Source: a bacterium (lineage in GTDB: Bacteria > Elusimicrobiota > Elusimicrobia > Elusimicrobiales > UBA9959). Taken from it: DNA of 64,000 nt. The position numbers and the translations under genes are program-made. Numbering within the stretch: the first letter of the stretch is position 1; each line of letters begins with the position of its first letter. The stretch covers positions 4,991 to 68,990 of the forward strand of contig JAJYJH010000012.1 of the NCBI GenBank assembly GCA_021789695.1, read 5' to 3'. The notes under the pieces are model-generated. The model was not told the DNA's origin. It was given only the letters and a program-made list of their open reading frames with translations, and did not search any database. Shown here piece after piece: positions 17,534 through 62,208 of this stretch.

Positions 17534-18949
17534 ATGGACTTCAGACTTTACAACACGATGACCAGGCAGAAGGAACTCTTCAGGCCCCTGAAGGAAGGAG
17601 AGGCCGGTATCTACACCTGCGGTCCGACGGTCTATCACTACGCGCACATCGGCAACATGCGCAGCTACATAGCCGAGGACGGCCTAGTGCGCGCACTGCG
17701 CTTCCTGGGCTTCAAGGTAAAGCGCGTGATGAATATCACCGACGTCGGCCACCTGGTCTCTGACGCCGACACCGGGGAGGATAAGATGGAGCAGGGCGCC
17801 CGCCGCGAGGGCAAGAGCGCCTGGGATATAGCGAAGTTCTACACCGAGGCCTTCTTCGGCGACTACTATGCCCTCGGCTGCGCCAGACCCGAAGTGATTT
17901 GTCCCGCCACCGGTTATATCAAAGAGATGATAGACCTGGGCGCCGCGCTGGAGAAGAAAGGCTTCACATACCCGATAGCGGGCGACGGCGTCTATTTTGA
18001 CACGTCGAAGCTGCCGGACTACGGCAAGCTGGCGGGTAAGGCCCATATAGATGGCATAAGGGAAGGCGCGCGCGTCGAAGCGGTGGCGGGCAAACGCCAC
18101 CCGGCCGATTTCGCCATCTGGAAGTTAGCCTCGCCCGGAGAGAAGCGCCAGATGGAGTGGGATTCTCCGTGGGGCCGCGGCTTCCCCGGCTGGCACATGG
18201 AGTGCTCGGCCATGGCCATGAAGCACCTGGGCGAGACCATAGACATACACTGCGGCGGCGAGGATCACGTGGCCGTCCACCACACCAACGAGATAGCCCA
18301 GTCCGAGGGCGCCACCGGCAAGACCTTTTCCAATTACTGGGTACACGTGCGTTTTCTGGTCACCGGCGACGCCGGCAAGATGTCCAAGAGTTCCGGCGAG
18401 TTCCTGACGCTGGCCTCCGTGACTAAGCGCGGCTACGACCCGCTGGCCTACCGCTACTACTGCCTGCTGACGCATTACCGCAAGCAGCTGGAGTTCAGTT
18501 GGGAGGGCGTGGAGGCGGCCGCCCGCGGCCTGGCCGGCCTGCGGGCTCTCGCGCGCAAGGTGCAGGCGGAGGCGACCGGACCTGTGCCTCCGGTCGAGCG
18601 AGAGGAGAAGTATTTCAAGGACTTCTCCGAGGCGCTGGCCGACGACGTCAATATGCCCGCCGCGCTCGCCGTGCTGTGGGAGACGCTCAGGGACGGCTCC
18701 ATCCCGGCCGCGCGCCGGTTTGCCTTCGCTAAGGCGGCCGAGGAGGTCGCCGCGCTGGACCTGTTCAGGTCGCGGGAAGAGGCGGCTGCCCTGCCCGCCG
18801 GACTGGAGGCGCTGATAAAGGAGCGCGAGGCCGCCCGCAAAGCCAGGGATTTCACCAAGTCCGACGAGCTGCGCAAGACGCTCGCGGAAAAAGGCGTGCT
18901 CATAGAGGATACACCACAAGGGACCAAATGGAAACTCATCCGCGGCTGA
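17534..18949 (+). CDS. cysS: Cysteine--tRNA ligase
   Basis: 'YTCGPTVY', HIGH 'HIGN', 'GFPGWHMECSAM', 'DIHCGG', 'KMSKS'. Confidence 0.98.
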   Translation: MDFRLYNTMTRQKELFRPLKEGEAGIYTCGPTVYHYAHIGNMRSYIAEDGLVRALRFLGFKVKRVMNITDVGHLVSDADTGEDKMEQGARREGKSAWDIAKFYTEAFFGDYYALGCARPEVICPATGYIKEMIDLGAALEKKGFTYPIAGDGVYFDTSKLPDYGKLAGKAHIDGIREGARVEAVAGKRHPADFAIWKLASPGEKRQMEWDSPWGRGFPGWHMECSAMAMKHLGETIDIHCGGEDHVAVHHTNEIAQSEGATGKTFSNYWVHVRFLVTGDAGKMSKSSGEFLTLASVTKRGYDPLAYRYYCLLTHYRKQLEFSWEGVEAAARGLAGLRALARKVQAEATGPVPPVEREEKYFKDFSEALADDVNMPAALAVLWETLRDGSIPAARRFAFAKAAEEVAALDLFRSREEAAALPAGLEALIKEREAARKARDFTKSDELRKTLAEKGVLIEDTPQGTKWKLIRG

Positions 18950-25192: not shown

Positions 25193-25227
25193 AAAAATGC
25201 CGGCCCGGGCGGGCCGGCATTTTTTTT
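25193..25227. terminator. Bidirectional Rho-independent terminator
   Basis: AAAAATGCCGGCCCG/CGGGCCGGCATTTTT between convergent genes. Confidence 0.85.
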
Positions 25228-29349: not shown

Positions 29350-29389
29350 AAAGAAAAACCCTCCGGTTTCCCCGGAGGGCTTTTCTTTT
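29350..29389. terminator. Bidirectional Rho-independent terminator
   Basis: AAAGAAAAA-CCCTCCGG-TTTCC-CCGGAGGG-CTTTTCTTTT. Confidence 0.85.
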
Positions 29390-36211: not shown

Positions 36212-37434
36212 TCAGGGGAATGAGGGAGCACCCGCTGGCGCTGTTCCCGGATTTCCGGCGTATGTTCGCCGGGCGTACGATCTCGGCCGTCGGGGACAAG
36301 TTCTTCTCGATAGCCATAGCCTGGTGGGTGCTCTCGTCCGGAGGCGGCAGGTCCAAATTTCATCTGGGCCTGATTATGGGAATGAACGTGCTGCCGGTGG
36401 TGCTGTTCGGGCCGCTGCTGGGCACACTGGCCGACCGCTCCGACAAGCGCAGGGTAATGCTGACGGCCGACGCGGCGCGCGCGGCCTTGGTGTTTGTCCT
36501 GGCCATGCTCCTGCTGGCGGGGAGGCTGACACTGCCCCTGCTCTACGCGCTCTGCTTCTGCATAGCTGGTTTCGGCCCGCTGTTCGAGTCGGCCGAAGCG
36601 GCCTCTATCCTGCGGCTCACGTCCGAGGAGATGATGCCGCAGGCGGTGGCCGCCGACTCTTCTATCCTGCAGCTCTCCAACGTAATCGGCTCGGCGCTGG
36701 GCAGCGTGCTGATGGCCGCGGCCGGAGTGGCAGGGGCTTTCCTGTTCAACGCCGCCGGCTACGCGGCCTCTTTTCTGGCCATCCTCGGTATTCGCACGCC
36801 GCTGGTCCCGGAGGCCAGGACCGAGAGCTCCTTCGTCGCGGAATTCCGCGAGGGGCTGGCTTATATACTGGGCAACAGGCCGCTGCTGATGCTGATCATA
36901 ACGTTCACGCTCTTCAACTTCTTCGTCGGGCCGATCATGCTGATAATCCCCATGATAGTGAAGTTCACTCTGAAGGCGTCCGTAACCTGGCTGGCCGTCT
37001 TCGAAGCTTTCTTCGCGGCCGGCTCGGCGGCGCTGGCGGCGGCGCTGAGCTTTAAGAAATCGTACGGGAACGTCTATGGCTGGTTTTTCGCCGCGCTGCT
37101 GGCGGTGGGAACGGCTTTCGGCGGGCTTTACTTCGCTTCGGACAAGTACGCCGTATGCGCCCTGCTTTTCGCCGCAGGCGGGGCGCTGGGGGCCGGCAAC
37201 GTGGTGCTGCTGACGCTGTTCCAGACAGCGGTGCCGGACGCCGTGAAGGGACGCTTCTTCTCTGTGCTGACCACGCTGGCCTACGCCGGGCTGCCGCTGG
37301 CCTTCATGGTCACCGGGCTCTTGGCGGAGCGCTTTTCGGTGGGCTTCTGTATAGCGCTGGACTCCTCGGCCGTGCTAGTCCTCTCTTTTATGGCGCTGGT
37401 CATCCCCAGGGTAGAATACGGCGACGGGGCGTGA
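36199..37434 (+). CDS. MFS transporter (DHA3/macrolide-efflux-like)
   Basis: 'DFRRMFAGRTISAVGD', motif A 'GTLADRSDKRRVM', 'EFREGLAYI', about 12 TMs. Confidence 0.9.
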   Translation: MRGIIRGMREHPLALFPDFRRMFAGRTISAVGDKFFSIAIAWWVLSSGGGRSKFHLGLIMGMNVLPVVLFGPLLGTLADRSDKRRVMLTADAARAALVFVLAMLLLAGRLTLPLLYALCFCIAGFGPLFESAEAASILRLTSEEMMPQAVAADSSILQLSNVIGSALGSVLMAAAGVAGAFLFNAAGYAASFLAILGIRTPLVPEARTESSFVAEFREGLAYILGNRPLLMLIITFTLFNFFVGPIMLIIPMIVKFTLKASVTWLAVFEAFFAAGSAALAAALSFKKSYGNVYGWFFAALLAVGTAFGGLYFASDKYAVCALLFAAGGALGAGNVVLLTLFQTAVPDAVKGRFFSVLTTLAYAGLPLAFMVTGLLAERFSVGFCIALDSSAVLVLSFMALVIPRVEYGDGA

Positions 37435-50748: not shown

Positions 50749-51105
50749 ATGACCGACGAAGAGTTCGAAAGGCTGGCGGAGAAGGTTGTCGGCGGCCTGC
50801 CGGAGGAGTTCCGCGCCAGGCTGGAGAACGTCGTGGTCGTGGTCAGGCCGGCCCCGACTGCGGAGCAGGCGCGGCGCTTCGGCGCCGGGCTGTTGGGGCT
50901 CTACGAGGGGGTGCCGCTGACCGAGCGCGGGTCGTTCTACAGCGGAGCCATGCCGGACAAGATAACGCTTTTCAGGGAGAACCTTACTGCCGGCGCCGTC
51001 TCGGAAGCCGCCGTTGAGGGGTGCATAAGGCATACGTTGCTGCATGAGATAGCCCACCACTTCGGCATGGACGACGACGAACTCCGAAAAAAAGGGCTTT
51101 ACTAG
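50749..51105 (+). CDS. Zincin-like metallopeptidase (Zincin_1/DUF1025)
   Basis: 'LLGLYEGVPL', 'PDKITLF', 'HEIAHHFG'. Confidence 0.9.
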   Translation: MTDEEFERLAEKVVGGLPEEFRARLENVVVVVRPAPTAEQARRFGAGLLGLYEGVPLTERGSFYSGAMPDKITLFRENLTAGAVSEAAVEGCIRHTLLHEIAHHFGMDDDELRKKGLY

Positions 51106-51195
51106 GGACGCTGCTTCCTATCTTCCTAACTTTACGAAAGGAACGCGAAGTTTTTGACGAGCCGGGTTTAGGAAGAATAGGAAGCAGCGTCCCTA
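51103..51195. mobile_element. 93-bp non-autonomous REPIN/MITE-like element
   Basis: Inverted ends TAGGGACGCTGCTTCCTATCTTCCTAAC / TAGGGACGCTGCTTCCTATTCTTCCTAAAC. The 16-bp core is identical to the repeats flanking the Y1 transposase. Confidence 0.85.
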
Positions 51196-52491
51196 ACTGA
51201 GTTTTGCCTTGCGCAGGTAGCCGGTGGCGCTCAGTATCCTGGCATTCACGAAATCCCCCGCCTTCAGTTTTCTGCCTGGGGCAGGTTCCACTTCCACCCT
51301 GCCGTCTATCTCCGGGGCATCTCTGTAGGTGCGCCCGAAGCGCGGCGAATCCATCAGCAGTTCCAGCGTACTGCCCCTGAGGCCGGCGTTGATCCGGTCC
51401 ACCACGGCGCTCTGCGCCCGTATGAGCGCGTCTGCGCGCTCCGCCTTTACCCCTCCAGGGACCTGGTCAGGGAGGTCGGCGGCCGCGGTTCCTGGCTCGC
51501 GCGAATAGCCGAAGACACCCACGTTGTCGAACCCGGCCTCTTTTACGAAGGCGAGCAGCCTTTTGAAGTCGGCGGCGGTCTCGCCCGGGAAACCGACTAT
51601 AAAATTGGTGCGCAGCGCGATGTCCGGCATGGCCCGGCGCAGCTCCGCTATCTTCGCTTTTATGGAGGCGGCGGTGGAGGAGCGGTTCATGCGCCTGAGA
51701 ACAGGATCGGATATATGCTGCAGCGGCATATCCAGGTAGCGGACGACGCTTTTGTTGGTCTTCATTACCCCTAGCAGCTCTTTGGTCACCCGCTCAGGGT
51801 AGACGTACATAAGCCGCCACCAGCGCACGCCTTGTATCTTTACCAACTCCTTCAGCAGCCCGGCCAGGCGCGGCTTTCCGTAGAGGTCCAGGCCGTAGGA
51901 GGTGGTGTCCTGCGCTATCAGCGAGATCTCCACGGCGCCGCTGGCGGCCAGGCGGGCGGCCTCTTCCAGGACCGACTCGAAGGGCTTGGAGCGGAACGGG
52001 CCACGTATGGACGGGATCAGGCAGTAGGCGCAGCGGTTGCCGCAACCGTCGGCTATCTTCAGGTAGGCGCTGTGGGGAGCGGTCAGCCTGGCTTTCACGC
52101 GCGGGGAGTCTATGCGGGTATCGGCGGCCAGGATATAGCTCCTGCCGGCCGCTATAGCCTCTGCGGCCCTGGAGAGCGCGTTGACTCCCACCAGCGCGTC
52201 TATGCCTGGGAACTTTTCGAGCAGGGCCTCCTTCTCGCGCTCCACCAGACAACCCGCCACCAGGACCTTAGAGAGCCTGCCGCGGGCCTTCAGGCGCAGC
52301 AGGCGGCGTATTTCGCCCTCTGATTCCCTGACCGCGGAGCCCAGGAAAGCGCAGGTGTTGAGCAGCGCGGCGTCGGCGCCCTCCTCGGAGGGGACCAGTT
52401 CCCAGCCCGCCGCGGCCAGTTCCCCGGCCATGACCTCGGAATCGGAGAGGTTCTTCGGGCAGCCCAGCGAAACTATGAACAGTTTAGGCAT
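51193..52491 (-). CDS. rimO: Ribosomal protein S12 methylthiotransferase
   Basis: 'SLGCPKNLSDSE', 'NTCAF', 'YLKIADGCGNRCAYCLIPSIRG', 'DAPEIDG'. Confidence 0.96.
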   Translation of the reverse strand: MPKLFIVSLGCPKNLSDSEVMAGELAAAGWELVPSEEGADAALLNTCAFLGSAVRESEGEIRRLLRLKARGRLSKVLVAGCLVEREKEALLEKFPGIDALVGVNALSRAAEAIAAGRSYILAADTRIDSPRVKARLTAPHSAYLKIADGCGNRCAYCLIPSIRGPFRSKPFESVLEEAARLAASGAVEISLIAQDTTSYGLDLYGKPRLAGLLKELVKIQGVRWWRLMYVYPERVTKELLGVMKTNKSVVRYLDMPLQHISDPVLRRMNRSSTAASIKAKIAELRRAMPDIALRTNFIVGFPGETAADFKRLLAFVKEAGFDNVGVFGYSREPGTAAADLPDQVPGGVKAERADALIRAQSAVVDRINAGLRGSTLELLMDSPRFGRTYRDAPEIDGRVEVEPAPGRKLKAGDFVNARILSATGYLRKAKLS

Positions 52492-52495
52492 GGCG

Positions 52496-53266
52496 TCAAT
52501 GCTCCTCCAGGCGGTTTATGGGTATGAACGCGATCCAGCCCAGCAGCAGCATCGCGAACAGGAAGACCGGATAGGCCACCTCCGGGCCGTGGATGCCGGT
52601 TGTCGCGTACAACTCGGACATTCCTCCCATCCCGGAGAAAAGGCGCGGGACGGCCGCGGCTATGACGACGACACTGAGGCTCTTCATCAGGATGTCGGGG
52701 TTGTTGCTGATGACGGAGGACCGCGCGCCCACGAGCGACGCGAAGACGTTGGAGTAGATGGAGGCCTGCCTGTAGCATTGCTGGTTCTTTATCGTGATAT
52801 CGTCCATGAACTCGATGCTGCGCTGCAAAAAACCGGCCTTCCCGGCCGCGTGCCTGAGGCGCTCTATCACGCCCGTGTCGGCGGTAACCGCGTCGACGTA
52901 GTAGGCTAGACTCTTTTCCGGCGCGAACATGTTGATCAGGTGCTTGTTCTCCAGCGAGTAGGTGATCTTGGTCTCCAGCTCTTCGGAAATCATGCCGATG
53001 ACCTTCAGGTGTCCCATAAAATGGAAGATGGAATTGTAAATCAACTTCAGGAACACCTCGCGTATGCCCGAGACCTGCTTGAAGTACTTGTCCGAGCGCA
53101 TACTGACGTCCTCAGGCAGTGCCAGCACCAGCCTGTCCCTGAACAGGAACAGGCCCATAGACGTGACCTTGAACAGAAATTTGAAGATCAGCGCGAGGCG
53201 GCCCGGCTCCGTCTCAAGGCGCGCCGGCTCCAGCCGGCGGTCCCTGATGCGGTATTCCGTGATCAT
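52496..53266 (-). CDS. CorA-family Mg2+ transporter, shortened and diverged (possibly decaying)
   Basis: 'EKSLAYY', 'DDITIKNQQCYRQASIYSN', 'SVISNN...MKSL', 'GGMSE' and two C-terminal TMs. The N-terminal domain is short. Confidence 0.7.
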   Translation of the reverse strand: MITEYRIRDRRLEPARLETEPGRLALIFKFLFKVTSMGLFLFRDRLVLALPEDVSMRSDKYFKQVSGIREVFLKLIYNSIFHFMGHLKVIGMISEELETKITYSLENKHLINMFAPEKSLAYYVDAVTADTGVIERLRHAAGKAGFLQRSIEFMDDITIKNQQCYRQASIYSNVFASLVGARSSVISNNPDILMKSLSVVVIAAAVPRLFSGMGGMSELYATTGIHGPEVAYPVFLFAMLLLGWIAFIPINRLEEH

Positions 53267-53318
53267 CAAAAGGGCCCGCCGGCGCTGATTCTCCGGCGGA
53301 CTCGTTCCTTTCCCCCGT

Positions 53319-54227
53319 CTATCTGCCACCCGCTCTCGCCTTCGGTTTGAGCTTCGCGGCCACGGCCTCGCCTATCTGGGAGAGATTGTCCACCACGGTG
53401 GCGCCGGCCTTCCGGAGCGCCTCCACTTTGGAGGCGTGCGTGCCGGCTCCTCCCTCGACGATGGCGCCGGCGTGGCCCATCCGGCGTCCCGGAGGCGCGG
53501 TTTTGCCGGCGACGAAGCAGAAGACCGGTTTGGTCATTTCGCCTTTGATGTAACTGGCCGCGTCCTCTTCCGCGGAACCTCCGATTTCTCCGATCATGAT
53601 GACGGCCTCGGTCTGCCTGTCGGCCTCGAAGAGCTTCAACACGTCCACGAAGTTCATGCCCTGCACCGGGTCGCCGCCTATGCCGACGACGGTGCTCTGG
53701 CCGAGGTTCTGGGAGGTAACCTGCCAGACGGCCTCGTAGGTCAGCGTGCCGGAGCGCGAGACTATGCCTACGGAGCCCTTCTTGTGGATGTAGCCGGGCA
53801 TGATGCCGGCCTTGCACTCGCCGGGTGTTATCACTCCGGGGCAGTTGGGGCCTACGAGCGTGACGTCTCGGCCGGCGGCGCGCTGGGCATTCAGACGCTT
53901 CTTGACGCGCACCATATCCATCACCGGGATGCCCTCGGTAATGCAGATGATAACGGAGACGCCGGCGTCGGCGGCCTCGAGTATCGAGTCGGCGGCGTAC
54001 GGCGGGGGAACGAAAATCAGTGACGCGTTGGCGCCTGTGGCTTTGACGGCGTCGCGGGCGGTGTTGAAGACCGGCTTGCCGAGGTGCTCTGCGCCGCCTT
54101 TGCCTGGCGTGACGCCCCCGACTATATCGGAGCCGTACTCGAGGCACTGTTGGGCGTGAAAGGAGCCCTGAGCACCGGTGAAACCGTGTACTATCAGTTT
54201 GGTCTTTTTGTTCAAAAGTATGGACAT
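53319..54227 (-). CDS. sucD: Succinate--CoA ligase alpha subunit
   Basis: 'GGVTPGKGG', 'GPNCPG', 'SRSGTLTYE', 'RMGHAGA'. Confidence 0.98.
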
Positions 54228-54231
54228 GTCG

Positions 54232-55392
<1,161 letters not shown>

Positions 55393-55553
55393 CGGTCCTC
55401 CAGGTCTGCCGCGGCGCCAAAGCCCGCCCTTCGTCCGGCGTCGGGCGCGGGTTTGAACCCCGGTAAGTTAATTTGTAGTATAATTCATGACGCAAAGTCC
55501 AGCCCCGAGGGGCCTGGATTTTCCCGCTTTTAAGGCCAGAGAGGTTCCTGAAA

Positions 55554-57407
55554 ATGACCAAACCAAAGAGCAGAAACGTGAACGTCAGCGAGCTGAGCTC
55601 GGTCACAGTGCGCTTCGCCGGAGATTCGGGCGACGGCATACAGCTGGTGGGCAGCCGGTTCGCCAACGCCACGGCCGTGGCCGGCAACGAACTCAGCACC
55701 CTGCCGGACTACCCGGCCGAGATCCGCGCCCCCGCCGGGTCGCTGGCCGGCGTCAGCGGCTTCCAGATAAGCTTCGGCGACGAGTCAGTGCTTACCCCCG
55801 GTAACAAACCGGACGTGCTGGTGGTAATGAACCCGGCGGCCCTGGCAGTCAACCTTAAGAGCCTTGAGAAGGGGTCCATCATAGTAGCCAATTCCGACGC
55901 CTTCGTGCCGGCCGCGCTGGAGAAGGCGGGCTACACCGCCAACCCGCTCGAGGACGGGACGCTGGACAACTACCGCGTGATAGCCGTCCCGGCCAATACG
56001 ATGACGGAAAACACGCTTAAGGACTCCGGTCTGCCCAAGCCGCAGGTCCTTAAGTGCAAGAACTTCTATATGCTCGGCATCCTGTACTGGATGTACGGCC
56101 TGCCGCTGGAGTCCACCAAGGAGTGGATAGAGAACAAGTTCAAGAAGGCGCCGGAGATCGCGGCCGCCAATTCCAAGGTGCTGGAAGCCGGCTACGACTA
56201 CGCCGAGACCACCGAACTCTTTGACGCCCGCTTCCAGGCGAAAAAGAGCGCGGTGACTCCGGGTAAGTACCGCAACCTGACCGGCAACGAGGCCGCCGCA
56301 TACGCGCTGATTACCGCGGCAAAACTGCTAAAGAAGAAGCTCTATTATGGCTCCTACCCGATAACGCCGGCCTCGGAGATCCTGCATACGCTGGCCAAGC
56401 ACCGCGCCAACGACGTGGTGATCTTCCAGGCCGAGGACGAGATAGCCGCGATCTGCTCCACGATAGGAGCCGCTTTCTCCGGCGAGCTGGCCGCTACCGG
56501 TACCAGCGGCCCCGGTCTGTCGCTGAAGGCGGAGGCCTTGGGGCTGGGCGTCATAGCCGAGCTGCCTATGGTGATAGTGGACGTGCAGCGCGGTGGCCCC
56601 TCCACCGGCCTGCCCACGAAGACCGAGCAGTCGGACCTGCTGCAGGCCGTTTACGGCCGCCACGGCGAGAGCCCGCTGGTCGTGCTGGCCGCCTCCAGCC
56701 CGGCCGACTGCTTTCACACGACGCTCGAGGCCGCGCGCATAGCCGTCAAGTATATGACGCCGGTCGTAGTGCTGACCAACTCCTACCTTTCCAACGGCTC
56801 CGAGCCGTTCCGCATCCCGAAGCTCTCCGAGCTGCCGAAGTTCGAGCTGCCGCCGCGCCCTGGGCCGGGGGACTACAAGCCGTTCATGCGCGACCCCGAG
56901 ACGCTGGCCAGGCCCTGGGCGTGGCCGGGGCTAAAAGGCTACGAGCACCGCATAGGCGGCCTGGAGAAGCAGGACGTTACCGGCGCCATCAGCTACGACG
57001 CCGAGAACCACGAGAGGATGACCCAGCTGCGCGCCGAGAAGGTGCGCCGCGTGGTCAAGGAAATACCGCAGACCAGGATATACGGCCAGCCCGAGGGCGA
57101 GCTGCTGGTCGTGGGCTGGGGCTCGACCTATGGCGCTATAACCTCCGCCGTGACCAAGGCCAGACGCGAGGGCATCAGCGTGTCCTCGGTCCACATCCGC
57201 AACATCTTCCCGCTGCCGCCGGACCTGGGCGCTACGATGCGCCGTTTCCGGAAGGTGCTGGTGCCGGAGGAGAACACCGGTCAGCTGCGTATGCTCTTGC
57301 GCTCGGAGTATATGGTGGAGCCGCTGGGCCTCAACAAAATGCAGGGCCAGCCGTTGAACTCCGACGAGGTGCTGGAGAAAATAAAAGAGGTCCTTAGAGG
57401 TAACTGA
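55554..57407 (+). CDS. korA: 2-oxoacid:ferredoxin oxidoreductase alpha subunit
   Basis: 'RFAGDSGDG', 'YPITPASE', 'QAEDEIAA', 'TSGPG', 'QRGGPSTGLPT'. Confidence 0.93.
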   Translation: MTKPKSRNVNVSELSSVTVRFAGDSGDGIQLVGSRFANATAVAGNELSTLPDYPAEIRAPAGSLAGVSGFQISFGDESVLTPGNKPDVLVVMNPAALAVNLKSLEKGSIIVANSDAFVPAALEKAGYTANPLEDGTLDNYRVIAVPANTMTENTLKDSGLPKPQVLKCKNFYMLGILYWMYGLPLESTKEWIENKFKKAPEIAAANSKVLEAGYDYAETTELFDARFQAKKSAVTPGKYRNLTGNEAAAYALITAAKLLKKKLYYGSYPITPASEILHTLAKHRANDVVIFQAEDEIAAICSTIGAAFSGELAATGTSGPGLSLKAEALGLGVIAELPMVIVDVQRGGPSTGLPTKTEQSDLLQAVYGRHGESPLVVLAASSPADCFHTTLEAARIAVKYMTPVVVLTNSYLSNGSEPFRIPKLSELPKFELPPRPGPGDYKPFMRDPETLARPWAWPGLKGYEHRIGGLEKQDVTGAISYDAENHERMTQLRAEKVRRVVKEIPQTRIYGQPEGELLVVGWGSTYGAITSAVTKARREGISVSSVHIRNIFPLPPDLGATMRRFRKVLVPEENTGQLRMLLRSEYMVEPLGLNKMQGQPLNSDEVLEKIKEVLRGN

Positions 57408-57408
57408 C

Positions 57409-58407
57409 ATGGAAAACACCAAGCTTACGGCCAAGGATTTCTCCTCCAATCTCCCGGTTAAGTGGTGCCCGGGCTGCGGCAATTTCGCCATCCTTAACAT
57501 GATGCAGAAGGTGATGGCGGGTATGAACCTGCCCCACGAGAAGTACACGGTAATCTCGGGCATCGGCTGCTCCAGCCGCTTCCCGTACTACGTCAGCACG
57601 TACGGTTTCCACTCCATACACGGCCGCGCGGCCGCCGTGGCCACGGGCGTGAAGTTGTCCAACCCCGAGCTCGCGGTCTGGGTCATCACCGGCGACGGAG
57701 ACGGCCTCAGCATCGGCGGCAACCACATGCTGCACGCGATACGCCGCAACATCGGTCTGAAGATAGTACTGTTCAACAACCGCATCTACGCGCTGACAAA
57801 GGGCCAGGCCTCGCCGACCACCCAGCCGGGCACCAAGACTAAGACTACCCCGCTGGGTTCGATAGATTATCCCTTCAACCCGGCCAGCTTCGCTGTAGGT
57901 CTGGGCTGCACGTTCGTCGCGCGCGGCCTGGATAATGACATGGCCGGCACCACCGCGATACTGGAGCGGGCGGCGAAGCACGAGGGCACGGCCTTCGTGG
58001 AGATACTGCAGAAGTGCGTGCCCTTCTCGGACAAGGAGTTCGAGCCGCTGAAGGACCCGGCCCTGCGCGAGGACATGTTACTGCGCGTGGAGCACGGTAA
58101 GCCGCTGCTCTTCGGCAAGGACAAGAACAAGGGCATCGTGATAAAAGACATGAAGCCGGAGGTCGTGACCTTCTCGGGTAAGGTGCCTCCTGAGGTGGCG
58201 GTTTACGACGAGGCTAATCCCGGGCTGGCCTGCCTGGTAAGCGGCCTGACGCAGCCGGAGTTCCCGGTGCCACTAGGTGTGTTGCGCGCCGTACGCAAGC
58301 CCTCCTACGAGGAACTCTACTATGACCACGTTAAGGCTGTCGGAGACACGAGGGAGCACGAACTCGAAACCCTCCTCACCGGCCCCGATGCCTGGGAAAT
58401 GAAGTAG
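57409..58407 (+). CDS. korB: 2-oxoacid:ferredoxin oxidoreductase beta subunit
   Basis: 'WCPGCG', 'SGIGCSSR', TPP motif 'GDGD...IGGNH', 'NNRIYALTKGQ'. Confidence 0.93.
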   Translation: MENTKLTAKDFSSNLPVKWCPGCGNFAILNMMQKVMAGMNLPHEKYTVISGIGCSSRFPYYVSTYGFHSIHGRAAAVATGVKLSNPELAVWVITGDGDGLSIGGNHMLHAIRRNIGLKIVLFNNRIYALTKGQASPTTQPGTKTKTTPLGSIDYPFNPASFAVGLGCTFVARGLDNDMAGTTAILERAAKHEGTAFVEILQKCVPFSDKEFEPLKDPALREDMLLRVEHGKPLLFGKDKNKGIVIKDMKPEVVTFSGKVPPEVAVYDEANPGLACLVSGLTQPEFPVPLGVLRAVRKPSYEELYYDHVKAVGDTREHELETLLTGPDAWEMK

Positions 58408-59502
58408 GGACGCTGCTTCCCAACTTCCAAACTTGGAGTTGCGGCGTTGTTCCCCCCAGCCATTTATAGTGAACGCGGCACCCCGACAGGCAGTTGTCGG
58501 GGTGCTCTGCTATGATACTCCCGGAGAAAAAGGGGGGGGATATGCCAAGACACGCCAGGATAGATATGCCCGGTCAGATATACCACGCAATGGCGCGCGG
58601 CATCGAGCGGCGCGACATTTTTGTCGGAGAGAATGACTGTTCCGATCTGCGGGGGAGGGTTTCTGTATGGCTCAAAAACGCCGGAGCCAAATTCCTTGCA
58701 TGGCGTTCTATGCCGAACCATTTTCACCTGCTGGTGCTGCGGGGCGAGCGGCCGCTGTCTGAGATCATGCGCCACATCATGACTGGCTACGCGGTGCGCT
58801 TTAATTTGAAGTGCAAGCGCGCCGGGCATCTGTTCCGGAACAGGTATAAGGCCGTAATCTGTGGCGCGGAAAGCTGTCTGATGGAGGCTGTGTCCTGCGT
58901 CCATCTTAATCCCCTGCGCGGCGGGCAGGTGGCGACCCCGGAAGAACTTAATGGCTACGGGTGGTGCGGTCACGGCGCGGCGCTCACGGGGGCGTGGGAC
59001 GGTATTCTGGACAGGGATGAACTTCTTCTTATTTCGACGGAGAGGGGGGCGGCGGAGGGGTACTTGCAGGCTATCCGTGAAAAGGCCGGGGCAGGCGGCC
59101 GCGCTGAGCCCGCCGGGGCTGTGCTATCCTCCGGCCCTGTTGGCCTCTCACGGCAAAAGAACTCCGGGGATGGCGGGTGGAAACCACTGGACCGGCGGAT
59201 ACTCGGCGGGCGCGACTTCGTGGAATTGGAAAGCCGCGGGAGAAGATACTCCGGCGCTGAGAAGCCGCGCGGAAGTGGAAAGTGTTACTGGGGTGTCCAG
59301 GATGGAAATGCTTGGTTATAACCGCAAAAAAGGTCCGGCACAGGCGCGCGCTGTGTACTGCTATATCAGCGTCAGGGATGCCGGCGCCAGAGGCCGTGAA
59401 CTGATGCGGGAGCTGGGAATGACTTCCGGCGCCGTATCTAAGCTGGTGGCTGAAGGAAAAGCGCTGCTGAAAAAGTTTGGAAGTTAGGAAGCAGCGTCCC
59501 TA
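58405..59502. mobile_element. Inverted-repeat-bounded Y1/RAYT transposase element
   Basis: Left repeat 58405-58434 TAGGGACGCTGCTTCCCAACTTCCAAACTT. Right repeat 59473-59502 (reverse complement) TAGGGACGCTGCTTCCTAACTTCCAAACTT. 29/30 identical. Confidence 0.85.
58542..59487 (+). pseudogene. REP-associated-type HUH tyrosine transposase (Y1_Tnp) with C-terminal HTH; frameshifted, catalytic Tyr apparently lost
   Basis: 'MPRHAR...YHAMARG...IF', HUH 'MPNHFHLL', 'GHLFRNRYKA', 'SCVHLNP' (family YIHxNP), 'RILG..DFVE'. The HTH 'ARAVYCY...LGMTSGAVSK' continues in another frame after about 59228. Confidence 0.85.
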
Positions 59503-59508
59503 TTTACC

Positions 59509-61575
59509 CTATTTACCGCGGACATATTTGATGTGGCTGATGCGGGTGCCGGGGAAGTAGAAACGTAGTATCTGGCGGTAGTTCTGCCCGTACTTGCCGG
59601 CGAGGCCCGCGGCGCCGCTCTGGCAAAGGCCTACGCCGTGGCCCCAGCCTCCGCCGTAGATCCAGAAGTTGCGGATCCTGCCGTCCTTGAAGCGGTCGAC
59701 TTCCAGGTCGAACAGCGTGCTTTTCAGCGAGCTGAAACCCAGCAGGTTGCGTATCAGGTTCTCCTTGTCTATGTCTACGGTACGCCTGCTGCCTACGACG
59801 CGCAGCGAGTTGACATTGCCGGACGGGGCGCGGCGCAACGGTATTATGTTGAGTACCTTCCCCACTCTGTAGTCCCTGTTGATCCGATAGGTCATGTCCT
59901 TCTCGCGGATTATCTTCAGCCAGCGGAAGTTGGAGGCGTGCTCGTAACCGGGGTAATTGCAGTTGGCCGGGGGGTCGCTGGTTATCCACAGGTGCCAGTG
60001 CCACGGGTCCAGCGGGGCTTCGGTCTTGCCCGGAGCTATGTCCGGCTTGGTGACCAGATACGGGACGTCTCCCCAGCCGGTGACTTCCTTTGAGGCCTGT
60101 ATCCACCCCCCGGAGTTGGAGTGATAGAAGGCGTAAGCGGGGCGGCCATGGTAGGTCAGGATATCGCCTTCGGTGTCTATCACGGCGCGCGTGGTCGTAT
60201 TCGCCTCTCCGTACTTGCCGTGGTAGGCCTGGCAGTGCTCGCTGTCGCAGAGATGGTAGCCCTCCTTCCGGTGCTGGCCGCCGTTCGCCATGCGTATCAG
60301 CACCTGGGTGCGGGCTATCACGGCCTGCGCCTTAAGAGCTTCATAGGGCCACTGCGGGTCCACCTCGCTGGGGACCACGCCAAGCAGGTACTGTTCCATG
60401 TCCACCACGTTCACCACGCCTATGCCGCGCGGCGGATCCGGGTAGAGCTCCACGTAACCGCGGTACTGGCGGTCGGCCGCGCGGAACCAACGGTTGCGCG
60501 TTCTGGAGGTCGCGTCGAAGATGACCGTGCCGTTCTTCTTCTCCGGGACGGCCAGGATGGGCCCGCTGAAGCGGCCGTAGACGGTGCCGTCGGCGCCTTT
60601 CAGGACCACTCGCCCGCCGTCGGCCAGCAGCGTCCAGGTCTCGTCCGGCGGGATCTCGGCGTACACCTTGCCTGTGGCCTTGCCCTTTATCGTCAGTCCC
60701 TCGAAGGACTTTAACCTCAGCAGGTTGTTGAAGCCCTGGTGGCCCATGGAGGTGGTGCCTATGCCCACGCGGATCTGGACCGACCGGGAAAGATTAGCCA
60801 GCGCGTCCACCGGTTCCATGACCAGCGGTTTGGTTATGTGGAACGGAGGGCGTATCTCCTCCGGTTGCTTGGTCAGTTTGCCTTCCAGTATCTTCATCAT
60901 CTTCGAGGCTACCGGATGCCCGGGAGCGTAATCCAGCACGCGGTAGTACTGGTTCCAGGCCTCGTTGAATTTCCCCTGTCTGACGTAGAGACCGGCAAGC
61001 GGCAGGCGGGCCTCCACGAAGGAGGGGTCCTTGCGCAGCGCCTCTATCAGCTCCTGTTCAGCCTTGGCGTACATCTTGAAGTTCATGTAGTTCCAGGCCA
61101 GGATGTAGTCCGCGCCGGCCAGGTCTGGCCGCAACTTCTTGTAGTTGGCCAGGTGCTCCAGCGTCCTGGCCTTGTCGCCGAGGTTGGAATAGACGCTGCC
61201 AAGGCCCAGTTCGGCCCGGGCGTCGCCCGGCTCCAGTCTGATGGCTGTTTCGAAGGCGGACCGGGCCCCGTTGTAGTCCGCCAAGTGGAAGCGCAGCCAG
61301 CCGAGCTCGGTGTAGATGTCGGCGTTCTGCGGGGCGCGTTCCAGGGCCCTGACCATTATGTCGGCCGCCTCGTAGTAGCGCCCGGCCTGGCGCAGGCACA
61401 TGGCCGCGTCCAGCAGCGGCTCGGGATCGGTCCGGTTATCCGCGGCCAGCAGCGTATAAGAGGAGGCGGCCCGGCTGAGGTCGCCTTTGAGATAAAGTTC
61501 GTACGGGGTTTCAGCCGGGAACGCGGCCCGGGATTGAAACAGCAGGAATAAAAGAATAAGATTGAGTTTCCGCAC
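59509..61575 (-). CDS. Secreted TPR + SpoIID/LytB domain protein (peptidoglycan lytic transglycosylase-like)
   Basis: GTG start and signal peptide, several TPRs, then 'YRG...VNVVDMEQYLLGVVPSE...EALKAQAVIART', 'CQAY', 'GGGWGHGVGLCQSGA'. Confidence 0.9.
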   Translation of the reverse strand: MRKLNLILLFLLFQSRAAFPAETPYELYLKGDLSRAASSYTLLAADNRTDPEPLLDAAMCLRQAGRYYEAADIMVRALERAPQNADIYTELGWLRFHLADYNGARSAFETAIRLEPGDARAELGLGSVYSNLGDKARTLEHLANYKKLRPDLAGADYILAWNYMNFKMYAKAEQELIEALRKDPSFVEARLPLAGLYVRQGKFNEAWNQYYRVLDYAPGHPVASKMMKILEGKLTKQPEEIRPPFHITKPLVMEPVDALANLSRSVQIRVGIGTTSMGHQGFNNLLRLKSFEGLTIKGKATGKVYAEIPPDETWTLLADGGRVVLKGADGTVYGRFSGPILAVPEKKNGTVIFDATSRTRNRWFRAADRQYRGYVELYPDPPRGIGVVNVVDMEQYLLGVVPSEVDPQWPYEALKAQAVIARTQVLIRMANGGQHRKEGYHLCDSEHCQAYHGKYGEANTTTRAVIDTEGDILTYHGRPAYAFYHSNSGGWIQASKEVTGWGDVPYLVTKPDIAPGKTEAPLDPWHWHLWITSDPPANCNYPGYEHASNFRWLKIIREKDMTYRINRDYRVGKVLNIIPLRRAPSGNVNSLRVVGSRRTVDIDKENLIRNLLGFSSLKSTLFDLEVDRFKDGRIRNFWIYGGGWGHGVGLCQSGAAGLAGKYGQNYRQILRFYFPGTRISHIKYVRGK

Positions 61576-61638
61576 GACGTCTATATCGTATGAAATTATT
61601 GGCGGATTATAGAATACGCCTCTCGATATAAAGGAGCT

Positions 61639-62208
61639 ATGCCGGAGAACCGTTCCGACGCGGAACTGATGGAGGCCTTCAGGGCCGGCGACGCCGGCGC
61701 CATGGGCTTGCTGATGGAGCGGCACAAAGCCGCCCTCTACGGTTATCTGTTGCGCCTTACCTCGCGGGCCGACGCCGCCGACGATATTTTCCAGGAGGTC
61801 TTTCTGAAATTGATCGGGAACCAGACGGCATACGGCGAAATGGAGAGGCTCAGAGCCTGGCTGTTCACGGTGGCCCGCAACGCGGCCATGGACCGCTTCC
61901 GGCGGGAGTCCGTCAGGGCGGAGTTGCCGCTGGACGGGGAGGAGGGGCGGCCCGGTCCAGCGGAGACCGCCCCCTCCTCCGAACCGGGCCCGGCGGAGGC
62001 GTTCGACAACAAGACCATGGGTGAGCGCATCGAGGCGGCGCTGGCCTCGCTCTCGGAGGAGCAGCGCGAGGTTTTCTACCTGCGGCACTACTCCGGCCTC
62101 TCGTTCAGGGAGATAGCGGCGATGCTGGAGGTGCCGATAGGGACCGTCCTGGCCAGGATGAGCCGCGCCGCGGCTCGGCTGCGCGACAAGCTGGGGGACC
62201 TGCAATAA
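61639..62208 (+). CDS. ECF-family RNA polymerase sigma factor
   Basis: 'SDAELM', 'ADDIFQEVFL', 'WLFTVARN', 'GLSFREIAAMLEVPIGTV'. Confidence 0.95.
   Translation: MPENRSDAELMEAFRAGDAGAMGLLMERHKAALYGYLLRLTSRADAADDIFQEVFLKLIGNQTAYGEMERLRAWLFTVARNAAMDRFRRESVRAELPLDGEEGRPGPAETAPSSEPGPAEAFDNKTMGERIEAALASLSEEQREVFYLRHYSGLSFREIAAMLEVPIGTVLARMSRAAARLRDKLGDLQ

Follow-up and report, generated by a model that had tools for sequence, protein, structure and literature searches.

REP-like (repetitive extragenic palindromic) repeats count as some of the most abundant non-coding elements in bacteria, and why they lie hard against the ends of open reading frames (ORFs) is unexplained. In the TIRtrons, as the main text of their description reports, genes resembling those of REP-associated tyrosine transposases (RAYTs) are flanked by terminal inverted repeats (TIRs) with the motif GGGG[AT][CG]A[CG] (GGGGWSAS), and TIR families are dispersed as singles, dimers and groups (Di Nocera, De Gregorio and Rocco, 2013; PMC3733652). 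The corresponding enzymes, subclass 2.1 of TnpA_REP, are the TIRYT class and carry a C-terminal Bac_DnaA_C or HTH_23 domain according to the main text of a later survey (Quentin et al., 2018; PMC6006769). Here we analyze a 64,000-nucleotide (nt) stretch of contig JAJYJH010000012.1, called the window, from a genome of an uncultured Elusimicrobia genus (G000; 2.45 Mb, 63 contigs, 63% G+C), in which the ends of a short inverted repeat coincide with TAG stop codons of host genes. Judged by their sequence, these repeats are best assigned to the dispersed TIR copies of a TIRtron, a REP-like system built around a Y1 HUH transposase of the IS200/IS605 superfamily (TIRYT, TnpA_REP subclass 2.1).

Like a TIRtron, the system has a Y1 HUH transposase, inverted repeats without hairpins that flank its gene, a gene 3' end that overlaps a TIR, and TIRs dispersed as singles, dimers and groups. 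It differs from the described TIRtrons in its host, an uncultured Elusimicrobia genus, and from their consensus in its motif, which is GGGGACGC in the congeners G019, G020, G021 and G022 (7 of 8 positions) and TAGGGACGC in the lineage of G000; the C-terminal helix-turn-helix (HTH) of TIRYTs, of Bac_DnaA_C, HTH_23 or HTH_28 type, is represented here by sub-threshold matches only.

A habit of ending at stop codons is already in print for a sister class, the GTAG REPs: in the main text of PMC3733652 their termini are said often to supply the TAG stop of flanking ORFs, and most of them follow an ORF at <20 bp from its end, in gaps that separate unidirectional or convergent genes. As the anatomy of our system is that of a TIRtron and stop supply by GTAG REPs has been published, the phenomenon is known for the sister class. 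Stop provision by TIR repeats, on the other hand, finds no mention for TIRtrons in the passages of PMC3733652 and PMC6006769 that were consulted. Our repeats share with GTAG REPs and REPtrons the placement near ORF ends and a related Y1 enzyme encoded between inverted copies. They are unlike them in that a GTAG REP is an imperfect palindrome of 20-40 nt and a single unit here is no palindrome (fold z -0.8 and -1.1), in that the enzyme scores below the cut-off of the model for classical RAYTs (NF047646), and in that the GTAG tag is partial: TAG is present at 15 of 23 ends in G000 and GTAG at 7 of those 15, and sister subfamilies lack the tag. What is new is the Elusimicrobia lineage, the high share of copies anchored in stops together with the conservation of anchored copies in the sister species, and the existence of sister GGGGACGC subfamilies that lie near stops yet are seldom anchored.

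Copies of the family lie at, or at most 16 nt after, the stops of ORFs far more often than random intergenic positions do. Where the outer AG of the repeat directly follows the T of a stop, it gives a junction TAG that replaces a native TGA, TAA or TAG with the length of the protein unchanged. We favor, with a probability of roughly 60%, a joint account in which TIRtron repeats are placed near stops, the TAG junction arises by integration from a host T and a repeat AG, and indels and survival then act on the result. Under this joint account the junction would come mainly from enzyme-mediated integration at or beside the T of the stop, by analogy with the cleavage of RAYTs at GTAG, and would later be adjusted by small indels. 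As the transposase gene of G000 is frameshifted and its repeat population small and old, the surviving copies would be enriched for anchored ones, which are kept in the sister species; a REP population shrinks once its enzyme is lost, as passages of a bioRxiv report put it (10.1101/2021.07.10.451892). Between convergent genes, two outward-facing copies would form a long predicted hairpin whose stem starts from both stop codons.

Repeat ends and stop codons in the window

Four exact copies of the 16-mer TAGGGACGCTGCTTCC are present in the window. They form two inverted pairs (51103/51195 and 58405/59502), and the features at these loci are as follows.

50749..51105, plus strand: Zincin-like metallopeptidase gene (ORF; Pfam Zincin_1, E 5.9e-28, profile 1-95 of 97)
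51103..51132, plus strand: left repeat copy, TAG + GGACGCTGCTTCC + TATCTTCC + TAACTT, ~27-30 nt
51133..51165, no strand: single-copy interior between the inverted copies, outside the repeat family (no second genome copy; interiors of other pairs unrelated)
51166..51195, minus strand: right inverted repeat copy; its TAG (complement of 51193-51195) is the rimO stop
51193..52491, minus strand: rimO, 30S ribosomal protein S12 methylthiotransferase (TIGR01125, 421 bits, profile 2-428 of 432; stop CTA 51193-51195)
57409..58407, plus strand: korB-like gene, 2-oxoacid:ferredoxin oxidoreductase beta subunit; its stop (58405-58407) is the first 3 bases of the left terminal repeat
58405..58434, plus strand: left terminal inverted repeat of the 1098-bp transposase-bearing unit (probable TIRtron)
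58542..59225, plus strand: transposase, N-terminal part (probable TIRYT), Y1_Tnp domain with HFH and RY motifs (Pfam PF01797, E 4.5e-9)
59230..59487, plus strand: transposase, C-terminal part in the next frame, with an HTH-like tail ..LVAEGKALLKKFGS before the stop at 59485-59487
59473..59502, minus strand: right terminal inverted repeat, with its TAG complementary to 59500-59502
59500..59517, minus strand: tandem 9-nt duplication, minus-strand GGTAAATAG twice (Gly-Lys-stop)
59509..62205, minus strand: TPR + SpoIID/LytB domain protein gene (TIGR02669, profile 2-269 of 270; stop 59509-59511)

A preliminary description of the window had read the terminal TAG of the repeat as the stop of the zincin, rimO and korB genes and assigned the fourth TAG to a tandem repetition of the final 9 nt of the SpoIID gene, and all of these positions hold: the zincin stop (51103-51105), for example, is the first 3 bases of the left repeat. 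At the fourth end the unit CTATTTACC stands in tandem at 59500-59508 and 59509-59517, copying the last 9 nt of the SpoIID/LytB gene, such that the proximal TAG (59509-59511) is the working SpoIID stop and the distal TAG (59500-59502) belongs to the repeat. The four host proteins (zincin, RimO, korB-like and SpoIID) match their family profiles through the last positions.

The same description held that, apart from the duplication, neither locus retains native intergenic DNA or a conventional terminator. A simple scan predicts no terminator at either locus. The loss of all native DNA is not demonstrated, for 33-37 nt of single-copy DNA lie between the repeats at 51103-51195. As to its remark that other convergent pairs are different, the same scan predicts a terminator at three of the four sites it named (29359-29379, 37453-37439 and 63548-63531) and none at 25193.

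The public runs carrying this DNA are four DNA metagenomes from one study. Among the joints listed for them, none crosses either repeat locus. The 9-nt duplication at spoIID recurs in the contig of run X2 that covers 59034-59700; in the closest congener, G009, the end of spoIID is without it and is anchored directly. The repeat copy at 51166..51195 has one T more than the contigs of runs X2 and X4, in which the letter at 51176 is absent. With 3 mismatches the 16-mer also matches 18170-18185 and 37246-37261, within coding DNA; with ~0.8 such matches expected and 6 matches reached by 1 of 100 shuffles, this is chance level.

Enrichment at stops across the genome

A search of G000 with a 24-mer, allowing up to 5 mismatches, found 23 repeat ends, 15 of which keep the TAG. 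In 11 of these 15 cases it is the stop of an open frame that is 124-937 codons long, and three of the remaining four follow the stop of a long ORF at 0, 2 and 6 nt. By comparison, 6.3% of all TAGs in G000 close such a frame (binomial P 7e-11), and 13.6% of TAGs that are either stops or intergenic are gene stops (binomial P 2e-7) when genes are called by crude greedy ORF heuristics (2154 genes, 555 with a TAG stop). The strong enrichment (11/15 versus ~6-14%) answers the question raised by the preliminary description, of what share of repeat ends carry an in-frame stop against a TAG background, and it supports a real link between repeat ends and stop codons. For placement near stops, a random intergenic position and orientation falls within 16 nt after a stop in 5.3% of cases (null computed on G000). 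With a stricter match, all 14 ends in G000 have a stop no more than 16 nt away, and 11 of them are anchored; in G009 all 13 ends are near a stop, again with 11 anchored. Since the two genomes share most sites, these counts are not independent and represent ~16 distinct anchored sites, not 22.

That the TAGs match ORF ends by chance, or that the repeat cut the genes short, is next to incredible on these data. Long spurious ORFs are indeed common in a genome of 63% G+C, but the binomial probabilities (7e-11 to 2e-7) speak against coincidence, and the flanking proteins, which match their profiles to the end, have orthologues that end at the same residue. The latter was established on orthologous loci from 40 congeners. 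The zincin tail ..KGLY is found in 21 of 21 relatives without the repeat (native stops TAG 8, TGA 11, TAA 2), and the korB tail ..WE[MIV]K (..GPDAWE[MIV]K before the stop) in 13 of 13 (TAG 7, TAA 6); two genes anchored elsewhere in G000 behave alike, ArgS (at C19:9280) with its tail ..RM in 29 of 29 relatives (TAG 18, TAA 8, TGA 3) and the gene at C41:15341 with the same end residue in 15 of 16 (TGA 10, TAG 4, TAA 2). The tails of rimO and SpoIID differ by one or two residues between species, and the rimO tail in the window is within ~1 residue of its relatives. The preliminary description had allowed that longer orthologues might reveal truncation; they are not longer, and since zincin, korB, ArgS and the C41 gene end at the same residue in relatives, the genes have not been truncated by the repeat.

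In most relatives a spacer of 39-84 bp with a bidirectional terminator hairpin lies between these convergent genes. The zincin and rimO stops overlap in four relatives, as CTAG in G017, G041 and G047 (L019, L031 and L036) and as TTAA in G006 (L020), with no spacer and no terminator. On the rimO side of the G009 locus (L010:1848) the TAG of the repeat reads CAG, and the rimO frame continues into the repeat to end in the tail ..PNFPTRQS; the pair there is shortened to 50 nt.

Filled and empty sites

Three sites of G019 (L045, L049 and L050) could be compared with close relatives at ~90% identity. At L049 the empty sites read TGA, 1-3 nt and then the ATG of the next gene, with TGA at that codon in G020, G049, G053 and G011; the pairs found there in G019 and G006 belong to different TIR families, and in both genomes the codon that is TGA in the relatives is TAG. 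A third TIR family lies ~22 nt after the TGA in G011. At L050, G019 is anchored, G020 has TGA, 5 nt and the repeat, and the other relatives are empty with TAA, TGA or TAG. At L045, G006 is empty, and by comparison G019 has gained the entire pair, 49-nt interior included, at a point between the stop and the native linker; the G019 gene is two codons shorter and its TGA abuts the repeat, and G020 has a different pair 2-3 nt after a native TAG. A copy in G009 (L098:1468) lies directly after a TAG that is the native stop in G000, the gene at C19:9161 differs by 6 nt in frame before the TAG between G000 and G009, and the linker at a site on C1 measures 0 nt in G000, where TGA is followed at once by TAG, as against 7 nt in G009, 3 in G019 and 5-6 in G020. 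The same tiny spacers have thus been hit repeatedly in different species, even by different TIR families, and on these comparisons the host stop supplies the T of the TAG and the repeat its AG.

These junctions could be taken for strict stop-codon homing, in which the Y1 enzyme integrates precisely after the first T (T/AA, T/AG or T/GA) as the sole cause, with no later trimming or selection. We consider this rather unlikely. It would account well for L049, where native TGA became TAG at the same codon in two species and with two TIR families at a site whose empty form has a spacer of only 1-3 nt, and for the G009 copy set directly after the native TAG of G000; moreover, G precedes TAG at 7 of 11 anchored ends, making GTAG, the RAYT cleavage motif according to the main text of PMC3733652. 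However, the bases that such an insertion should leave at the far junction are not seen at L049, junction indels exist, and the sister subfamilies treated below are mostly not anchored.

Alternatively, copies might land near stops and be trimmed afterward, small deletions or slippage fusing the last sense codon to the TAG of the repeat. The varying C1 linker, the contrast at L045 between a native TAG followed by 2-3 nt and the repeat in G020 and a gene two codons shorter with an abutting TGA in G019, the 6-nt in-frame difference between G000 and G009, and the 9-nt tandem duplication at spoIID, which is slippage at a junction, all point this way, as does the microhomology offered by native stops that are often TAG (argS 18/29, korB 7/13), frequently followed by G. 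Yet as a full explanation trimming is improbable, in our estimate: it needs a deletion starting exactly at the stop at ~16 separate sites, it has little to remove at L049, where a native TGA is followed by a 1-3-nt spacer, and it leaves unexplained why copies land beside stops.

The preliminary description had posed these as a choice, the element either targeting TAG stops or being joined to them by deletions that trimmed its flanks. There is evidence for each, the change of native TGA to TAG at the same codon on one side and interspecies junction indels on the other. In keeping with the joint account, we think that integration at the T and trimming both contribute, and that the old repeat population of G000, which has no intact enzyme, has kept anchored copies in preference to others.

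Sister subfamilies and conservation

The end of the repeat reads TAG-GGACGC in G000 and G009 and (A/T)GGGGACGC in G019, G020, G021, G022, G044, G049 and G053. Other genomes yielded 102 GGGG-type ends: a stop precedes 48 of them by no more than 16 nt, and at most 13 are anchored as an in-frame TAG with the preceding T. The base before GGGG is A in 85 of 100 ends, and the base before that is T in only 37. Subfamilies ending in GGGGACGC accordingly sit 0-16 nt after stops and are seldom anchored: the whole family hugs ORF ends, and precise anchoring prevails only among copies with a TAG end. With at most 13 of 102 ends anchored and 35 more at 0-16 nt past a stop, most insertions are not in the stop, which counts against homing as the sole cause.

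The 20 regions of G019 that were fetched hold 47 ends, including a cluster in L054, versus 23 ends in G000, and the enzyme gene of G019 is intact. Across 16 orthologous ends of G000 and G009 the repeat is 86.9% identical, the upstream flank 79.6% and the downstream flank 62.5%; the higher identity of the repeat points to constraint or homogenization as its probable cause.

Other families of inverted pairs begin GGGGACG and then differ (for example ..TTCTTAACTATCGGA, ..CTCTTAGTTAATTAG, ..CTGATGACTATATGAC and ..TTGTTGAGTTATTGAG), at L116 (G019, after argS), L131 (G044), L253 (G006), L255 (G011) and L094 (G009). Their shared beginnings suggest a superfamily of TIR repeats within the genus.

Single copies, pairs and interiors

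The unit is ~27-30 nt long, with an outer end of AG followed by GGG(G)ACGC. Copies stand alone or form inverted pairs whose interiors are unrelated single-copy DNA; the transposase gene lies within one such pair. The 23 ends in G000 comprise 6 short pairs, 1 gene-bearing pair and 9 singles, several of which lie 3' of the upstream gene in a co-directional pair. Pairs in G000, G009, G019 and G020 have only ~27 nt per end in common and enclose 9-75 nt of unrelated DNA; among 19 G019 pairs, none of 171 comparisons found interiors that share a 9-mer. The supposition that the element is a miniature inverted-repeat transposable element (MITE) moving as a unit with a fixed body is therefore refuted by the pairs sharing only their ~27-nt ends, by the absence of a common 9-mer and by the many single ends.

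A particular form of this idea, a TA-duplicating MITE of the IS630/mariner or Correia type inserted whole into the TA of overlapping convergent stops, is very unlikely. If the pair and one TA were taken out at zincin/rimO, the two stops would overlap in the way that those of G017, G041 and G047 (CTAG) and G006 (TTAA) do, and the spacer is at most 0 in 76 of 421 convergent pairs by crude gene calls. But the same removal at C19:9161/9280 and at korB/spoIID would leave at least one gene without a stop, a contradiction at 2 of the 3 doubly anchored loci; the interiors are unrelated and many copies are single ends; sister ends read AG...CT, which is impossible as a direct duplication; and the partner gene encodes a Y1 HUH enzyme, not a DDE transposase.

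REPINs are reportedly, following Bertels and Rainey, REP doublets that form hairpins. Our repeats resemble them in the long hairpins predicted for inverted doublets and in their dependence on a Y1 gene that is single-copy and inherited vertically. A REPIN is replicated whole, and its spacer is conserved; the interiors here, by contrast, are not conserved (0/171 sharing a 9-mer; G000 interiors single-copy). For segments that hold a single repeat the predicted folds are no more stable than those of shuffled sequence (z -0.77 and -1.07), and the pair at 51103-51195 is predicted to fold at -59 kcal/mol (z -8.2) into a stem that begins at the stop codons, with no U-tract; in Rfam the hairpin had only a chance sub-threshold match to a miRNA model (29 bits against a gathering score of 96). 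Such a hairpin might end transcripts in place of a terminator, as the preliminary description supposed, or might stabilize the mRNA or damp translation. In Escherichia coli, ribosomes reportedly stall at REPs located no more than 15 nt from a stop, and translation is reduced, as cited in the text of PMC12306157 (its reference 17). A structured repeat at a stop or a few bases past it is common to both cases and might, by analogy, indicate a function for the hairpin; unlike the E. coli repeats, single copies here do not fold.

Several origins for the pairs were considered. Derivation from the gene-bearing unit by internal deletion fails in that the interiors share at most two 9-mers with the full-length interior of G019. 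Copying of the interiors from elsewhere in the genome is opposed by the search of G000, in which no second copies of pair interiors were found. That two singles flank a native spacer is ruled out at L045 of G019, where G006, being empty, shows no counterpart of the 49-nt interior and the pair does not enclose the native linker; the pair at C19:9164-9277 of G000 does fit this idea, its interior holding a perfect terminator-like hairpin.

In G049 and G053, L239 and L243 are minimal pairs whose ~27-nt repeats are only ~2-4 nt apart, and the interior can thus be nearly absent. Some interiors contain a third, degenerate repeat end (L039, L049 and L056 in G019; L105 in G020), which suggests repeated occupation of the same site.

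The transposase gene

The 1098-bp unit between korB and spoIID encodes an IS200-like Y1 (HUH) transposase and has a single mismatch between its 30-nt ends (58405-58434 and 59473-59502). A tblastn comparison with the intact G009 protein places the loss of the frame between 59225 and 59230. This frameshift is common to the contigs of runs X2 and X3, both of which add a 1-nt deletion at 59288, with which the frame would return after ~20 codons; in one of them a further 14 nt are deleted near the gene start. In G009 an intact 334-aa gene occupies the same site (84% identity over 2051 bp), and G019 has an intact 333-aa transposase gene at another place. The transposase stop (59485-59487) lies inside the right terminal repeat, and the G019 ORF runs through its repeat. 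A second Y1 transposase-like frame at C13:5731-6168 of G000 is 31% identical to residues 1-148 of the window copy and is open for 262 aa.

PF01797 matches the intact copies at E 4.3e-12 (G009) and 3.2e-8 (G019). The best NCBIfam model is REP_Tyr_transpos, the REP-associated tyrosine transposase (NF047646), with 46.2, 71.8, 64.0 and 58.3 bits, under the 80-bit cut-off. In the C-terminal third (last ~80 residues) of intact homologues, sub-threshold matches are to Bac_DnaA_C (E 0.06-0.22), HTH_23 (0.039) and HTH_68 (0.09), and a DnaA model reaches E 0.0016 in a 56%-identical relative. A sequence search of the Protein Data Bank (PDB) with the intact enzyme gave no meaningful match.

Elements of the IS200/IS605 superfamily such as IS608 insert 3' of a short specific target, which stays as the left flank of every copy. 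The enzyme here would share their HUH Y1 chemistry, and such retention of the target offers a possible model for a junction made of a host T and an element AG. In IS200/IS605 elements the hairpins are subterminal, inverted ends are absent, element and gene move together, and several identical gene-bearing copies occur, whereas the ends here are inverted and G000 holds one gene-bearing copy plus the relative of 31% identity on C13.

Discussion

Several points weigh against the joint account as we state it. The integration step is a proposal, and no recent pair of filled and empty alleles fixes the exact cut. The right junction of the filled L049 sites lacks the GA that simple insertion after the T would leave, and the junction indels (6 nt at C19:9161, linkers of 0-7 nt on C1, and the 9-nt spoIID duplication) mean that trimming or slippage also shapes junctions. 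The account also offers no origin for pairs with unique interiors. The RAYT model score is under the curated 80-bit cut-off, and the HTH matches are under the Pfam thresholds. On the statistical side, the counts from G000 and G009 are not independent, the gene calls are only crude ORF heuristics, and the near-stop null was obtained from G000 alone and applied to other genomes.

A bolder proposal is that TIRYT-type HUH enzymes integrate the ~27-nt end exactly after the first T of a stop, the AG rebuilding TAG; that stops would thus be a safe harbor to which different TIR families come repeatedly and independently at the same gene ends; and that anchored copies are selected as functional 3'-end modules, given that between species they are better conserved than the coding DNA beside them. 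We advance it tentatively and think it doubtful, but if true it would constitute a new target rule for the IS200/IS605 superfamily and would explain why REP-like repeats hug ORF ends. We know of no IS200/IS605 element that prefers stop codons.

The genus offers a natural contrast between a TAG-ended lineage, in which ~3/4 of TAG copies are stops, and GGGG-ended sisters a few bases past the stop. It also contains intact and broken transposase genes, and one and the same tiny spacer may be empty in one species, filled in another and filled in a different way in a third. This contrast makes targeting, trimming and retention testable by comparative genomics and simple biochemistry. For annotation, the repeats mean that a stop codon can belong to a repeat, and that repeat masking before gene calling would extend such genes.

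Additional observations

Outside the window, at C1:8884-8971 of G000, a repeat pair borders with one of its ends immediately on the ATG of a threonine-synthase-like gene of 412 codons (N-terminus MKKIKTLQCIRC.., SFKDR motif), whose only Shine-Dalgarno-like sequence (AGGAAG) lies inside the repeat, ~10 nt upstream. This arrangement of repeat and ATG is kept in four species: G000, G009 (L100), G019 (L039) and G020 (L105). A 415-codon antisense ORF at the same place is spurious. Two single copies in G000, at C41:15341 and C19:42542 (L140 and L141), lie at junctions of genes that are not neighbors in most congeners and thus mark synteny breakpoints; the junction at C19:42542 is common to G000 and G009.

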